64,000 bases of DNA. It comes from Shigella phage ESh27. Under the pieces are notes generated by a model. It was given only the letters and a program-made list of their open reading frames with translations. It was not told the DNA's origin and searched no databases. The DNA lies in sequence record ON528737; one strand, written 5' to 3'. Positions 3,653 to 20,750 of the stretch are shown here, in pieces (positions within the stretch are counted from its first letter, which is position 1; every line of letters begins with the position of its first letter). The translations under genes were made by a program, and so were the position numbers.

Positions 3653-4570
3653 ATGGATTTAGAAATGATGTTGGATGAGGATTACAAAGAAGGTATTGCA
3701 CTTGCAGACTTTAGTAACATTGCATTAGCAGCTGCATTAAACAACTTTGAAGACGGTGATAAAATTACTGTTCCGATGGTTCGCCATGTAATCTTGAATT
3801 CAATTCGTAAAAACGTAGTGATGTTCCGTAAGCAAGGTTATACAAAATTTGTATTGTGCATGGATAACGCTACTTCCGGGTATTGGCGACGCGACTTTGC
3901 TTACTATTACAAGAAAAATCGTAAAACTGATCGTGAAGCTTCAAAGTGGGATTGGGAAGGATATTTTACTGCACTCCATCAAGTCGTTGATGAGATTAAG
4001 AAATATATGCCATACGTTGTAATGGATATTGACAAATACGAAGCGGATGACCATATCGGTGTATTAACTAAATATTTGTCATTAGCTGGTCATAAGGTGT
4101 GTATTGTTGCATCAGATGGTGACTTTACACAATTACACAAATACCCTAACGTTAAACAGTGGTCGCCACCGCAGAAAAAATGGGTTAAAATTAAGAATGG
4201 TTCTGCCGAAATTGATTGCATGACTAAAATTCTTAAAGGCGACCGTAAAGATGGTGTTGCGTCTGTTCGAGTTCGTGGTGATTTCTGGTTTACTCGAGTT
4301 GAAGGCGAACGAACTCCGAGTATGAAAACAACGATTATTGAAGCAATTGCTAATGACCGTTCTCAAGCTGAAGTATTATTAAGTGCAGAAGAATATAAAC
4401 GGTATCAAGAAAATTTGGTTCTCATTGATTTTGATTATATCCCTGATAATATTGCTTCAACCATTATAGAGTATTATAACTCATATAAACAACAACCTAA
4501 AGGCAAGATTTATTCATACTTTGTAAAATCCGGCCTTTCTAAATTAACAAGTGTAATTAACGAATTCTGA
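3653..4570 (+). CDS. rnh: RNase H (5'-3' exonuclease / flap endonuclease)
   Basis: 305 aa; MDLEMMLDEDYKEG N-terminus as in T4 RNase H; SD aagagg; divergent from gene 34 as in T4. Confidence 0.93.
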   Translation: MDLEMMLDEDYKEGIALADFSNIALAAALNNFEDGDKITVPMVRHVILNSIRKNVVMFRKQGYTKFVLCMDNATSGYWRRDFAYYYKKNRKTDREASKWDWEGYFTALHQVVDEIKKYMPYVVMDIDKYEADDHIGVLTKYLSLAGHKVCIVASDGDFTQLHKYPNVKQWSPPQKKWVKIKNGSAEIDCMTKILKGDRKDGVASVRVRGDFWFTRVEGERTPSMKTTIIEAIANDRSQAEVLLSAEEYKRYQENLVLIDFDYIPDNIASTIIEYYNSYKQQPKGKIYSYFVKSGLSKLTSVINEF

Positions 4571-4577
4571 GGTAAAC

Positions 4578-4847
4578 ATGGCTAAGAAAGAAGCAGTTGA
4601 ATTTAATCAAGATGTGCATGGTGAAGAACTGGCTAAACTAGTCAAGGAAGCTTCCGATAACAAACTTAAAATTTCTGGTTATAATGAACTGATTAAAGAC
4701 ATTCGTACTCGTGCTAAAGAAGAGCTTGGCGTTGATGGAAAAATGTTTAATCGTTTGTTAGCTCTTTATCATAAAGATGCTCGTGACCAATTTGAAGCTG
4801 AAAACGAAGAGGTAGTCGAGCTTTATGACACAGTTTTCACTAAGTGA
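4578..4847 (+). CDS. dsbA: dsDNA-binding protein DsbA (late transcription enhancer)
   Basis: 89 aa, T4 DsbA length and rnh-dsbA-33-59-32 synteny. Confidence 0.88.
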   Translation: MAKKEAVEFNQDVHGEELAKLVKEASDNKLKISGYNELIKDIRTRAKEELGVDGKMFNRLLALYHKDARDQFEAENEEVVELYDTVFTK

Positions 4848-5163
4848 TATTAAACCGGTTGATGAGGCCGGTTTATCTGAACAAGAGTTAGCAGTAAAAC
4901 ACGATAAAGATGATATCGCTAAATTGCTTGACCGTCAAGAAAACGGATTCATTATCGAATCCATGGTTGAACAATTTGGTATGTCTTATTTAGAAGCAAC
5001 AACTGCTTTCTTGGAAGAAAATTCTATTCCAGAAACACAATTTGCTAAATTTATTCCTACAGGAATTGTTGAAAAAATTACAAGTGAAGCAATTGACGAA
5101 AACATGCTTCGCCCATCAGTTGCTCGTGGTGAAAAAACTAATACGTTAGATTTCTTATTATGA
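4825..5163 (+). CDS. 33: Late transcription co-activator gp33
   Basis: 112 aa (T4 gp33 is 112 aa); synteny. Confidence 0.88.
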   Translation: MTQFSLSDIKPVDEAGLSEQELAVKHDKDDIAKLLDRQENGFIIESMVEQFGMSYLEATTAFLEENSIPETQFAKFIPTGIVEKITSEAIDENMLRPSVARGEKTNTLDFLL

Positions 5164-7651: not shown

Positions 7652-8239
7652 ATGCTTAAATTAGTATTCGCGTGTGCTCCGACTAAAACAGTTGATGATA
7701 AACTGGAATATGCTTTTGGATTAGGTGATGGGCTGCCATGGAAGCATATCAAACAAGATATGAGTAACTTTGTTGCTCGCACTAAAAACACTGTAATGGT
7801 TATGGGTGCTAAGACTTTTGCATCATTACCTCGTCTACTCCCAGATCGTACTCATGTGGTTGTCACTGATATGGCCAGAAAACTGCCTAGGACTAAAACT
7901 GATGAACTTGCACGGTTCTATATCACCCAAGCAGAATTTATTACCTTGGTAATGGGTAGTGAAATTAACTTGTTAAGCCCTTCAACCGACGTACCGTTTA
8001 AACTTTCTACTGAACATGTCGATGTCTCGGTTATCGGCGGTCCTGCTCTACTTAAACAAGCATTGCCTTATGCTGATGAAATTGTTATGACTAAAATCAT
8101 TAAGAAATGTCGTGTTAATTCAGACGTTCAACTTGATAAAGATTTCATCCAAGATATTATGCTTCAACGTTCTATGGTAGAATCTCATTACTACAGAATC
8201 GATGAACTCACCGAAATTACTGAGAGCGTATATAAATGA
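7652..8239 (+). CDS. frd: Dihydrofolate reductase
   Basis: 195 aa; FGLGDGLPW, VIGGPALL, C-terminal TESVYK as in T4 DHFR. Confidence 0.95.
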   Translation: MLKLVFACAPTKTVDDKLEYAFGLGDGLPWKHIKQDMSNFVARTKNTVMVMGAKTFASLPRLLPDRTHVVVTDMARKLPRTKTDELARFYITQAEFITLVMGSEINLLSPSTDVPFKLSTEHVDVSVIGGPALLKQALPYADEIVMTKIIKKCRVNSDVQLDKDFIQDIMLQRSMVESHYYRIDELTEITESVYK

Positions 8240-9096
8240 AACAATACCAATACCTGATTAATGATATCCTAGAAAATGGCTACGAAACAGACGACCGTAC
8301 AGGCACAGGAACAATTGCCCTGTTCGGAACTAAATTACGTTGGGATCTGACTAAAGGATTCCCTGCAGTAACAACTAAGAAATTAGCATGGAAAGCTTGT
8401 ATTGCCGAGTTACTGTGGTTCATGTCAGGTTCTACTAATGTTAATGAATTACGTCTTCGTACTCATGGTAGTCTAATTGAAGGTAAAACTATTTGGGACG
8501 ATAATTACGAAAATCAGGCAAAAGACCTTGGTTATCATAGTGGTGAACTTGGTCCTATATATGGTAAACAATGGCGTGATTTCGGTGGTGTGGACCAATT
8601 AGTTGAAACAATCGACCGTATTAAAAAATTACCAACTGATCGCCGTCAAATTGTTTCTGCCTGGAATCCGGCCGAAATAAATCAAATGGCTCTTCCTCCT
8701 TGCCATATGTTCTATCAGTTCAATGTGCGTAATGGTCATCTTGATTTACAATGGTATCAACGCAGTGTAGATGTTTTCTTGGGCCTGCCGTTCAACATTG
8801 CCTCGTACGCTGCCTTGACGCATATTGTGGCTAAGATGTGTAATCTTATCCCGGGTGATTTAGTGTTCTCAGGCGGCAATACGCATATCTACAGCAACCA
8901 CGTAGAGCAATGCAAAGAAGTTTTACGTCGTGAACCTAAAGAGTTGTGTTCTCTTGAAATTAATTGGCCTAGTAATTTTGAGAATTGGCCTACAAAAATC
9001 CAAATGGACTGGGTTACTGGAACGATGACACATTCTGATTTCGTTCTTAAAAATTACGAATCACATCCAGCTATCAAAGCTAAAATGGCGGTATAA
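8236..9096 (+). CDS. td: Thymidylate synthase (uninterrupted, no group I intron)
   Basis: 286 aa continuous ORF; active-site PPCH motif; T4 TS is 286 aa. Confidence 0.95.
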   Translation: MKQYQYLINDILENGYETDDRTGTGTIALFGTKLRWDLTKGFPAVTTKKLAWKACIAELLWFMSGSTNVNELRLRTHGSLIEGKTIWDDNYENQAKDLGYHSGELGPIYGKQWRDFGGVDQLVETIDRIKKLPTDRRQIVSAWNPAEINQMALPPCHMFYQFNVRNGHLDLQWYQRSVDVFLGLPFNIASYAALTHIVAKMCNLIPGDLVFSGGNTHIYSNHVEQCKEVLRREPKELCSLEINWPSNFENWPTKIQMDWVTGTMTHSDFVLKNYESHPAIKAKMAV

Positions 9097-16008: not shown

Positions 16009-16307
16009 ATGAAAACATTACTAGAGAATTATATCAAACGGTCAGATGAGTATATTGATATCTGCCGTGGAATGTCACTTGTCAATTATGATAAAGATGC
16101 AGCAAAGGCCATAGATGAAGCAGGTAAAGCTCTTCGTAAAGCTGCTAAAGAAAAAGGGTTGGATTTGCAACAACTCAAAAGTCATATGATTAAATTTATT
16201 TCTTCAAACGTTAGAAGTACGTCAATTAATAAAAACGTTGCTGAAATTAATAAAGACCGGCGCGAACATAACATTCGTATTCTTGAAGCTTTCTTAGGAA
16301 TAAAATA

Positions 16308-16308
<1 letters not shown>
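16009..16308 (+). CDS. Hypothetical protein
   Basis: 99 aa ORF, SD gagg. Confidence 0.5.
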
Positions 16309-17394
<1,086 letters not shown>

Positions 17395-17395
<1 letters not shown>

Positions 17396-18074: not shown

Positions 18075-18104
18075 GTTTACAACACCGTAGAGTTGTGATA
18101 TGAT
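18075..18104 (+). promoter_or_regulatory. T4-type early promoter (GTTTAC ... TATGAT)
   Basis: gtttac 18075-18080, gtgatatgat. Confidence 0.5.
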
Positions 18105-18131: not shown

Positions 18132-18368
18132 ATGCTAAGTGAAAATCCAATTACAGTACACGAATTTCAGATTAAAGTAAAAGAATTTGCTCAAGCACTC
18201 ATCAATAAAGTGTCTGAACGTTTCCAGGATGCAACATTACGAGTTATTCAAGAATCTCCACGTTCTTTTCTCATAATCGTTAATCCTAAAGATGGTGACC
18301 AAATTACTAATCTTAAATTAGGCAGTGATGGTCTTGTTGAAGCAACTCGAGTATATGGAACACTATAA
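18132..18368 (+). CDS. Hypothetical protein (cd.x-type small ORF)
   Basis: 78 aa ORF, SD gaggaaa. Confidence 0.5.
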   Translation: MLSENPITVHEFQIKVKEFAQALINKVSERFQDATLRVIQESPRSFLIIVNPKDGDQITNLKLGSDGLVEATRVYGTL

Positions 18369-18488
18369 TGAGAGCTATCTCATTACTATCGAGAATGGTC
18401 ATAAATCTGAGCACTACCAACTTAACCTGTCTAATCCGGTTAAAGGTATTGTTGAATCAGAATCTGTTTATATCTCCTAAGGATTGTT

Positions 18489-19481
18489 ATGTTACCTGTC
18501 GTCGGAAAACTTATTTCTCCAAAAGAACTGGCTGAGATTATTCCTTTGTCGGAAGCTTACGCATCACAAGTGGCTTCTCATCGCGAACAAGTTAATTCGA
18601 TTATGAATGGTGAAGACCCACGCAAACTTATTGTTGTAGGTCCTTGTTCAATTCATGACCCTATTGCTGCTGTTGAATACGGCAAACGTCTGGCTGAACT
18701 TCAAACTCGTCTTCCTAATGTTCTGTTAGTGATGCGCGTTTATTTTGAAAAGCCTCGAACTACCGTAGGTTGGAAAGGTCTTGTAAATGATCCATATCTT
18801 GACGGAAGTTTTGATATGAACCACGGTCTTATAGTTGCACGAACATTGTGTCGTAAACTTCTACGTATGGGACTTCCATTAGCAACTGAAGTATTAGACC
18901 CATTCACGATTAAGTATCTTTCTGGTATTTTCTCATGGGTTGCTATTGGCGCCCGTACGACTGAAAGTCAGACACATCGTGAAATTGCTTCAGGTCTACC
19001 GATGTGCGTAGGCTTTAAGAACGCAACCAATGGTTCTATTAAAGTAGCTACAGACGCGATGTATAGTGCCGCCTGGCCTCATCGGTATATGGGTATGGAC
19101 GTCGATGGTACTGTAGGCATTGTTGAAGCTGAAGGTAATCAGAATACGCATATCGTATTGCGTGGCGGGACCAACGGCCCGAACTATCATTCTTCTGATA
19201 TTCAAGAAGCTTCTAACAAAGCAAGGGCAGTAGGTCTGAATCATTATGTAATGGTTGACTGTAGCCATGCAAACGCTGATGGGCATTATAGCAATCAAAT
19301 TGGTATTGGTAAAAATTTAGCAGCTAATGATTTGGTCAAAGGAATTATGATAGAATCGTTCCTACATGAAGGAAATCAAAAAATTTCTGATAATATGTCC
19401 TATGGCGTTTCCGTTACCGATGCGTGCATCAGTTGGGAACAAACTAAAGAGCTGTTAACTTATATTAATAAGGTTCAATAA
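18489..19481 (+). CDS. 3-deoxy-D-arabino-heptulosonate-7-phosphate (DAHP) synthase, class I (AroG/AroF/AroH-like)
   Basis: 330 aa; GPCSIHD, RVYFEKPRTTVGWKGLVNDP, IGARTTESQTHRE, GFKN, DCSHAN, IESFLHEGNQ match the E. coli AroG family including metal ligands (Cys, His, Glu, Asp); stop overlaps cd start (TAATG). Confidence 0.85.
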   Translation: MLPVVGKLISPKELAEIIPLSEAYASQVASHREQVNSIMNGEDPRKLIVVGPCSIHDPIAAVEYGKRLAELQTRLPNVLLVMRVYFEKPRTTVGWKGLVNDPYLDGSFDMNHGLIVARTLCRKLLRMGLPLATEVLDPFTIKYLSGIFSWVAIGARTTESQTHREIASGLPMCVGFKNATNGSIKVATDAMYSAAWPHRYMGMDVDGTVGIVEAEGNQNTHIVLRGGTNGPNYHSSDIQEASNKARAVGLNHYVMVDCSHANADGHYSNQIGIGKNLAANDLVKGIMIESFLHEGNQKISDNMSYGVSVTDACISWEQTKELLTYINKVQ

Positions 19482-20062
19482 TGAAAGCTAGCACATACCT
19501 TCAGATTGCATATCTGATTTCTCAAGAATCAAAATGTTGTTCATGGAAAGTAGGTGCCGTCATTGAAAAAGATGGACGTATCATTTCTACTGGGTATAAC
19601 GGTAGCCCGGCAGGTGGTATAAACTGTTGTGACCATGCTACTGAACAAGGTTGGTTGAAGAATAAACCAAGCCCGGTCATCGTTGCTGGGCATAAAGAAG
19701 GCACTACAGCATTTGGACGGGCCGATAATTTTGTTTTGGCTAAAGAACATCGGGCTGCTCATAGTGCATGGTCTGCTAATAACGAAATCCATGCGGAACT
19801 GAACGCAATTTTGTTTGCAGCTCGTAAAGGTAATTCTATTGAAGGTGCTACGTTATATACGACGCTTTCTCCGTGTCCTGATTGCACTAAAGCTATTACG
19901 CAGTCAGGTATTAAAAAGGTTGTATATGCAGAATTATATGACCGATCTCCTGAAAATTGGGCAGACATTCTAAAACAAGCTGGTATTGAAGTAATTCAGT
20001 ACTCTCGTAATAATCTTCGTTCTCTGAATTGGGAACAAATCCGAAACTTTTGTGGTGAATAA
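19481..20062 (+). CDS. cd: dCMP deaminase
   Basis: 193 aa; MKASTYLQIAYLISQESKCCSWKVGAV, HAELNAI, SPCPDC zinc motif; matches T4 Cd. Confidence 0.95.
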   Translation: MKASTYLQIAYLISQESKCCSWKVGAVIEKDGRIISTGYNGSPAGGINCCDHATEQGWLKNKPSPVIVAGHKEGTTAFGRADNFVLAKEHRAAHSAWSANNEIHAELNAILFAARKGNSIEGATLYTTLSPCPDCTKAITQSGIKKVVYAELYDRSPENWADILKQAGIEVIQYSRNNLRSLNWEQIRNFCGE

Positions 20063-20417: not shown

Positions 20418-20750
20418 ATGTCTGAAGTACAACTCCCAATTCGTGCTGTTGGTGAATATGTCATTCTGGTTTCTGAACCCGCTCAAGCAGGTGATGAAGA
20501 AGTTACCGAATCAGGACTTGTGATTGGTAAACGTGTTCAAGGTGAAGTTCCTGAACTATGTGTAGTTCATTCTGTAGGTCCTGATGTTCCTGAAGGTTTT
20601 GTTGAAGTCGGTGATTTGACTCCACTACCAGTTGGACAAATTCGAAATGTTCCACATCCATTTGTGGCTTTAGGTCTTAAACAACCTAAAGAAATTAAAC
20701 AGAAATTCGTAACATGCCACTATAAAGCTATTCCGTGTCTTTATAAGTGA
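20418..20750 (+). CDS. 31: Co-chaperonin gp31 (GroES analogue for capsid protein folding)
   Basis: 110 aa; [35 protein letters not shown]-terminal [15 protein letters not shown] as in T4 gp31. Confidence 0.92.

Follow-up and report, generated by a model that had tools for sequence, protein, structure and literature searches.

The closest described relatives of the gene treated here are two 3-deoxy-7-phosphoheptulonate (DAHP) synthases of E. coli, the Tyr-sensitive AroF (PDB 6agm/6agl) and AroG (PDB 1kfl, 1qr7). In the type I-alpha enzymes an N-terminal extension together with a beta-hairpin make up the Phe site, which lies at the interface of the tight dimer (PMC4735112), and feedback-resistant alleles have been described, among them AroG P150L and S180F and AroF Q152I and N8K (PMC11843938; PMC7044121), the AroG alleles at P150 and S180 abolishing Phe inhibition (PMC11843938, PMC7044121). 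On the phage side, the genome paper of phiC120 mentions a DAHP synthase domain (PMC8022965) and that of Klebsiella phage KLB31 proposes an auxiliary metabolic gene (AMG) role for a shikimate-pathway gene, a proposal made from genomic data alone that shares with ours a lytic phage carrying a host-type metabolic enzyme to sustain a bottleneck step (PMC11845039). Here we analysed a stretch of 64,000 nucleotides (hereafter the window) from Shigella phage ESh27 (record ON528737), a Mosigvirus, that is, a T4-like coliphage, which over 5 kb has 98.1% identity with the LF82 phages. The gene in question lies at 18489..19481 on the + strand and encodes a protein of 330 amino acids (aa) that, by profile, alignment and structure-model evidence, is a type I-alpha (AroF-like) DAHP synthase. 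We consider it likely that this is a functional accessory gene of Mosigvirus, carried on a phage-derived cassette, whose enzyme, most probably deregulated, would sustain the flux into chorismate.

The gene call by itself adds nothing, as the protein has been deposited and named in more than 100 Mosigvirus genomes. The fresh point with respect to the known annotation is that the sequence suggests the loss of the amino-acid feedback brake, and this raises the question of a virulent coliphage that uses a naturally deregulated enzyme to get round the end-product control to which the host subjects aromatic biosynthesis.

Family assignment, catalytic residues and fold

The open reading frame (ORF) starts with an ATG preceded at 5 nt by the Shine-Dalgarno sequence AAGGA, with no further in-frame start upstream before a stop. 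A sequence-only reading of the window had pointed to this ORF as a phage DAHP synthase gene and had quoted six motifs (GPCSIHD, KPRTTVGWKGL, IGARTTESQTHRE, GFKN, DCSHAN and IESFLHEGNQ); all six are found in the translation, and the gene is present and intact. The protein matched the Pfam family PF00793 (DAHP_synth_1) with E=5e-75 (252 bits, cutoff 25.5) and passed the NCBIfam aroFGH equivalog TIGR00034 (427.7 bits, cutoff 173.2) as well as the subfamily NF009395 (455 bits, cutoff 343), and it fell under the cutoffs of the AroG-specific and AroH-specific NCBIfam models. The class-I identity claimed by the earlier reading was thus borne out by the profile search. The other family within PF00793, 3-deoxy-D-manno-octulosonate 8-phosphate (KDO8P) synthase, was ruled out because the margin over the aroFGH equivalog cutoff is large and the metal-binding Cys is present.

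To locate functional residues we aligned the phage protein with AroF, AroG and AroH of E. coli MG1655, 13 sequences of the phage clade and 9 bacterial homologues. The four metal ligands of AroG (C61, H268, E302 and D326) correspond to C53, H260, E289 and D311 of the phage protein and are invariant in the 13 phage and 9 bacterial sequences, so that the loss of ligands feared on a proper alignment did not occur. All the residues that hold phosphoenolpyruvate (PEP) and erythrose-4-phosphate (E4P) are also kept (AroG R92, KPRT 97-100, A164-R165, K186 and R234). Among solved structures the best relative is E. coli AroF (6agm, E=5e-105), identical at 51% of positions over the full length, the AroG structure being matched at 4e-91 with 47% identity. 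The AlphaFold2 model, with a predicted local distance difference test score (pLDDT) of 84 and a predicted TM-score (pTM) of 0.87, superposes on the chains of AroG and of N. meningitidis DAH7PS with TM-scores of 0.88-0.91 (0.90 for the fold shared with AroG), and its strands 198-203 and 209-214 form the internal beta-hairpin extension of the (beta/alpha)8 barrel. On these grounds the protein is a class I DAHP synthase with an intact catalytic core, and it would be expected to have DAHP synthase activity, converting PEP and E4P to DAHP.

Inhibitor-site changes and predicted feedback insensitivity

The sequence-only reading had described the protein as about 20 aa shorter than AroG at its N-terminus and had seen in this a possible release from feedback. 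The total of about 20 aa stands, but the N-terminus accounts for only 7-10 of them, and the other missing residues are due to a shorter C-terminus and to two loops inside the protein from which about 5-7 and 3-4 aa are deleted. Compared with the 356 aa of AroF, the 330-aa phage protein likewise has both loop deletions and the shorter C-terminus, and it is without AroF residues ~2-10. The N-terminal truncation is common to all members of the phage clade: the segment that holds D6/D7/I10 in AroG and N8/I11 in AroF is absent, and the subsequent helices remain.

Three further positions are replaced within the inhibitor pocket. At AroG P150 (AroF P151) the phage protein has Ile141, with Pro kept in one sequence of the clade; at AroG Q151 (AroF Q152) it has Lys142, with Arg in one sequence; and at AroG S180 (AroF S181) it has Pro171. 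This signature separates the phage clade from its relatives. The pattern T[IV][KR]YL occurs in 23 of 24 phage-clade sequences and in none of the other 95 close homologues or of 150 representatives taken from a library of 1.84 billion proteins, and GLP..VGFKN occurs in all 24, in none of the 95 and in 3 of the 150. The reverse holds for PQ[YF]+[GA]LS..VGFKN, found in 88 of the close homologues, 54 of the representatives and none of the phage clade; the close bacterial relatives keep the P/Q/S residues.

In AroG, Q151 and S180 are said to hydrogen-bond the inhibitor, and D6/D7 of the partner subunit reportedly contact it. Because the replaced positions align with those of feedback-resistant mutants and the N-terminus is truncated, we infer, leaning only slightly to this side, that the phage enzyme is insensitive to feedback by Tyr and Phe. 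The earlier idea of feedback insensitivity thus has more in its favour than that reading had argued, since the three replaced positions add to the truncation. Set beside the feedback-resistant AroG alleles P150L, S180F, D146N and L175Q, the phage protein is likewise altered at P150 and S180 (PMC11843938, PMC7044121).

The alternative that survives best is that the phage carries an ordinary Tyr-sensitive AroF copy, as many GenBank labels say, which would add enzyme dose under host-like regulation. AroF is indeed the best solved match and NF009395 is passed, the phage protein keeps the beta-hairpin and a number of hydrophobic residues of the pocket, and Gly stands at the position of AroG S211, as in AroF. 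This Tyr-type Gly (G202) is invariant in the phage clade, and the position, which is that of G226 in yeast Aro4, is indicated as one of Phe/Tyr selectivity by ARO4 G226S (PMC7044121) and by the titles of PDB entries for NmeDAH7PS S213G. What such a copy would be expected to retain, however, is the machinery of inhibition, and here the first 8-10 residues of the N-terminus are lacking, the AroF N8 site among them, and I, K and P stand in place of AroF P151, Q152 and S181, at positions where Q152I and AroG P150L and S180F are feedback-resistant (PMC11843938). A Tyr-inhibited enzyme would, moreover, be of little added use where tyrosine is plentiful, and we regard this explanation as unlikely.

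Two other homologues show further combinations at these positions. The metagenomic T4-like contigs L022/L023 encode an intermediate homologue (P0022) with Pro at AroG P150, Lys at 151 and Pro at 180, its gene in L022 not being followed by cd, the dCMP deaminase gene. Aeromonas phage HJ05, a 79-kb phage that is not T4-like, encodes at 3899-5062 a distant DAHP synthase (38% identity, other gene context; used as outgroup only) whose N-terminal extension is long. This protein has Pro where AroG has S180 and residues other than P/Q at 150/151, and its allosteric site may have been altered independently.

Distribution among T4-like phages

The gene is already known. It belongs to PHROG 5045 ('phospho-2-dehydro-3-deoxyheptonate aldolase', moron/AMG), which it matched with E=3.2e-182, residues 1-330 aligning to positions 8-337 of the 341 in the profile. 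A tblastn search over 50,697 phage records found the gene in 212, all of them full-length matches, 100 at an identity of at least 99% and 39 at 95-99%. Proteins 100% identical to that of the window are encoded by CCU7, p000v, Bas46/ChristianSchoenbein (QXV76892.1), phiC120 and the LF82 series, under GenBank labels that vary between aroF, DAHP synthetase and 'putative aldolase'.

Homologues with 58-77% identity occupy the interval between pseT and cd in Kanagawavirus Entb_45 and PEi26, Kagamiyamavirus EcS1, Marfavirus PWKp18, Winklervirus X20, Bragavirus PM2 and an uncultured T4-like contig, the synthase being found in this interval in six T4-like genera. The members of the PHROG 5045 set that we compared (Bas46, phiC120, HX01, PEi26, EcS1, X20, PM2 and PWKp18) share the interval, the truncation and the I/K/P signature, and nothing material sets the window gene apart from the set to which it belongs. 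The novelty entertained by the sequence-only reading is therefore lost, the same gene being annotated at the same locus in 139 Mosigvirus records and in Kanagawa-, Kagamiyama-, Marfa-, Winkler- and Bragavirus phages, with a PHROG of its own.

The local placement described in that reading held: cd.2-type ORFs precede the gene and cd follows it, the synthase stop codon (TAA, 19479-19481) sharing one base with the cd start (ATG, 19481-19483) in TAATG. The absence of the gene from T4 was also correct, since cd.1 stands there at the position of the synthase, and RB69, the type Mosigvirus, has an empty site in which cd.2 abuts cd. The translational coupling to cd did not survive as a conserved feature. 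The synthase abuts cd in the window and in Kanagawavirus and Marfavirus phages, but the overlap is not conserved because in EcS1, X20 and PM2 the synthase and cd are kept apart by one or two small ORFs.

Anatomy and origin of the cassette

Comparison with the empty site of RB69 delimits the insertion. BLASTN homology between the two phages runs up to window position 18383 and starts again from 19478, the same 19 RB69 bases matching both ends. The junctions are marked by a 13-bp direct repeat, ATAATGA[G/A]AGCTA, with its left copy at 18365..18377 (+) and its right copy at 19478..19490 (+), where the empty-site homology restarts; in RB69 the repeat is the junction between the cd.2 stop and the cd start. 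The 1.1 kb between the repeats hold the synthase gene and an ORF of 41 aa.

This small ORF (18355..18480, +) points to the source of the cassette. It represents another cd.2, of foreign origin, of which the C-terminal half remains (Pfam DUF7320 positions 43-76; phrog_15876 over its full length), and is distinct from the resident cd.2 homologue, which lies upstream of the insertion at 18132..18368 (+; 78 aa, DUF7320, Pfam PF24005 with E=1.5e-35, phrog_1504) and is collinear with the cd.2 of RB69 and T4. In local BLOSUM62 alignments the 41-aa product scored 60-70 against the cd.2 of Kanagawavirus and Marfavirus and 30 against the cd.2 of the window itself. It overlaps the end of the resident gene by 14 nt, stays an intact ORF and is annotated in Bas46, HX01 and F2, and a cd.2 fragment upstream of the synthase occurs only in Mosigvirus. 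Since the foreign 3' half of cd.2 is of the Kanagawavirus/Marfavirus type, another T4-like phage was, judging by these alignments, the source of the cassette, whose left breakpoint lies within the donor cd.2 and which was inserted into an RB69-like genome.

Other lines of evidence agree with a phage origin of the cassette, namely its phage-like codon usage, the monophyly of the phage synthases (83/100 bootstrap in a neighbour-joining (NJ) tree) and the low identity (at most 55%) of the homologues outside the phage clade, which come from several phyla and which we took as bacterial. A search for a direct bacterial donor gave none, the NJ sister group of the phage clade being an unresolved set of 98 sequences, and no sampled donor was closer than 77% identity. 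By these comparisons the gene did not come directly from the host. No endonuclease gene was found within the cassette.

Matches labelled 'Acinetobacter phage MD-2021a' (45-48% identity) were discarded as bacterial chromosome contigs with clpS, clpA and fadH as neighbours; one of them, CAKLQH020000043.1, carries clpS, clpA, aroF, bioH and fadH and looks like a mislabelled bacterial chromosome.

Diversity of the cassette within Mosigvirus

The flank from cd to 31.1 was found at an identity of at least 90% in ~150 records, 139 of which have the cassette. Of these 139, 114 share at least 99% identity with the window over the cassette, the flank reaching 96.7% at best. An alignment of eight Mosigvirus genomes, a small sample, gave the same picture: nucleotide diversity (pi) ranged between 0.004 and 0.011 from cd.2 through the synthase (window 18132-19478), and reached 0.046 in cd and 0.042 in pseT. 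At third codon positions pi was 0.011 in the synthase, 0.108 in cd and 0.094 in pseT, about ten times lower in the synthase than in the genes flanking it; the diversity of gene 31 is also low. None of the variable synthase positions within Mosigvirus is a catalytic or a signature residue. This pattern fits a cassette of recent common origin that would have spread by recombination onto diverse backbones.

Shigella phage JK45 and Escherichia phage F2 are placed in Tequatrovirus by taxonomy, yet they have a Mosigvirus-like pseT-cd region including the cassette, with 99% identity in the synthase gene.

Codon usage and a candidate promoter

Codon usage in the synthase gene is that of the phage, as the sequence-only reading had claimed. 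Its GC content at third codon positions (GC3) is 0.29, against 0.50-0.57 in E. coli aroF, aroG and aroH (0.50 in aroF), and its relative synonymous codon usage (RSCU) correlates with that of the neighbouring phage genes at r=0.88 and with that of aroFGH at 0.28. For expression, a consensus scan found a promoter-like site of the sigma-70/T4-early type in the gap between cd.3 and cd.2 (GTTTACA-17 nt-TG-TATGAT, 18076..18104, +), with 10/12 matches and an extended -10 TG, in the place where T4 annotates the early promoter Pe133295, between cd.2 and cd.3. No promoter-like or terminator-like site was detected by the region scan between cd.2 and the synthase. The site is the probable source of a transcript running from cd.2 through the 41-aa ORF and the synthase into cd.

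Proposed role and alternative explanations

Taking the results together, the accessory gene that we propose would act as follows. It is probably transcribed with cd.2 and cd from the early-type promoter in the cd.3/cd.2 gap, and its product would condense PEP and E4P in the first committed step of the shikimate pathway. The missing N-terminal strand, which shuts the partner subunit's inhibitor pocket, would together with the three replaced pocket positions most likely leave the enzyme deregulated. Carbon would in this way be kept flowing into chorismate at a time when the isozymes of the host are under feedback inhibition and repression and, with host shut-off, are not replaced any longer. The chorismate product from which the phage might benefit could be folate, quinones or the aromatic amino acids. 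A fuller scenario, to which we give somewhat less than an even chance, is that the pocket was remodelled once and kept by selection, giving a natural feedback-resistant or differently regulated clade, and that the cassette recently swept through Mosigvirus by recombination, since a forced shikimate flux in the host would raise phage yield in habitats replete with amino acids, the gut among them.

If true, this would be the first functionally grounded AMG of the shikimate pathway in coliphages, and it would carry AMG biology beyond marine phages to the enteric T4-like ones. The presence of a low-diversity cassette in ~93% of the sampled Mosigvirus genomes would be explained as well, and metabolic engineering would gain a natural scaffold of feedback-resistant DAHP synthase. 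A model-grade system is at hand, as Bas46, from the BASEL collection, has the identical protein and RB69 offers a natural empty site.

Several observations weigh against this proposal. Deviation from the P/Q/S residues is not rare across the family, as no more than 72 of the 150 distant representatives have the full triad. The Ile, Lys and Pro of the phage protein are not the substitutions of the characterised alleles (Ile and Pro standing where the AroG alleles have Leu and Phe), and at D146 and L175 (Ile in the phage) there is no mutant-like change. Much of the pocket is retained, including D146, the equivalent of AroF P148, L179, V221, the beta-hairpin and the Tyr-type Gly. The altered segment, residues 140-158, is the one stretch of low confidence in the AlphaFold2 model (pLDDT <50), and its strict conservation could instead reflect the sensing of another ligand. 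The region has no more promoter-like sites than chance would give (16 found, 17.8 expected), and early co-transcription is therefore argued from position only. RB69 and about 10 of the ~150 Mosigvirus-like records (~7%) are without the gene. Variable codons with an amino-acid change and those with synonymous changes only number 11:11 in the synthase, 8:42 in cd and 22:72 in pseT, a ratio that indicates either weaker constraint or a divergence too recent for purging. Finally, no functional work on a phage DAHP synthase, whether an assay or a knockout phenotype, was found in the full-text literature, subscription journals being outside its coverage.

As to the purpose of the enzyme, the sequence-only reading had proposed that it raises chorismate for para-aminobenzoic acid (pABA) and hence folate, which would feed the DHFR, the thymidylate synthase and the dCMP hydroxymethylase of the phage. 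Chorismate is the precursor of pABA, and ~10 kb upstream of the synthase gene the same strand encodes DHFR (7652-8239), thymidylate synthase (8236-9096) and NrdA/NrdB; the synthase gene abuts cd in the window and in two other genera, as described above, and one uncultured T4-like contig holds frd, td, pseT, the synthase and cd inside 7 kb. This co-location is no evidence, however, because T4 and RB69 carry the same folate-dependent genes without having the synthase. The adjacency to cd is, moreover, interrupted by small ORFs in three genera and missing in L022, the pseT-cd interval is a variable region of unrelated small ORFs, and the synthase is not joined by any pab or fol biosynthesis gene. 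The aromatic amino acids draw far more of the chorismate flux than any other product. The folate idea is therefore plausible but without specific support, and as the purpose of the gene we judge it improbable.

The last alternative, a neutral or selfish passenger that spread through Mosigvirus by recombination with no benefit to the phage, its enzyme dispensable or decaying, could appeal to the absence of the gene in RB69 and ~7% of the records, to an 11:11 codon ratio above that of cd and pseT and to a region known for accessory ORFs with a putative homing endonuclease annotated 2.2 kb upstream in Bas46, but it is very improbable given that all 212 phage records have a full-length match, that catalytic residues are invariant among genera only 58-77% identical, that codon usage is fully ameliorated, that the locus is conserved in six genera, and that the cassette lacks an endonuclease gene and the upstream 99-aa ORF a Pfam match.

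Functional accessory use of a probably deregulated DAHP synthase remains the reading that we favour over these alternatives.

Neighbouring genes and minor observations

The genes around the cassette are those of a T4-type locus. Upstream stand pseT (16496-17395), small ORFs of the cd.5, cd.4 and cd.3 types, cd.2 and the 41-aa ORF, and also upstream on the same strand RnlA and Alc are encoded along with the DHFR, thymidylate synthase, NrdA and NrdB mentioned above. Downstream, cd itself (19481..20062, +; 193 aa, Pfam PF00383 with E=4.7e-26) is labelled dCMP deaminase in the annotations of Bas46, T4 and RB69, and beyond it come a 31.1-type WYL_2 protein, gene 31 (Cpn10-like) and rIII. No tRNA gene and no Rfam family at the gathering threshold was found across the whole 64-kb window.

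The ORF called 'putative homing endonuclease' in the Bas46 annotation lies at 16009-16308 and encodes 99 aa, for which no Pfam match was found at E<=1e-5; in RB69 another small ORF takes its place. The third-position GC content of cd.2 (18132-18368) and of gene 31 (20418-20750) is extreme, at 0.14-0.15 compared with ~0.27-0.36 in the genes nearby, and the diversity of both among genomes is very low.

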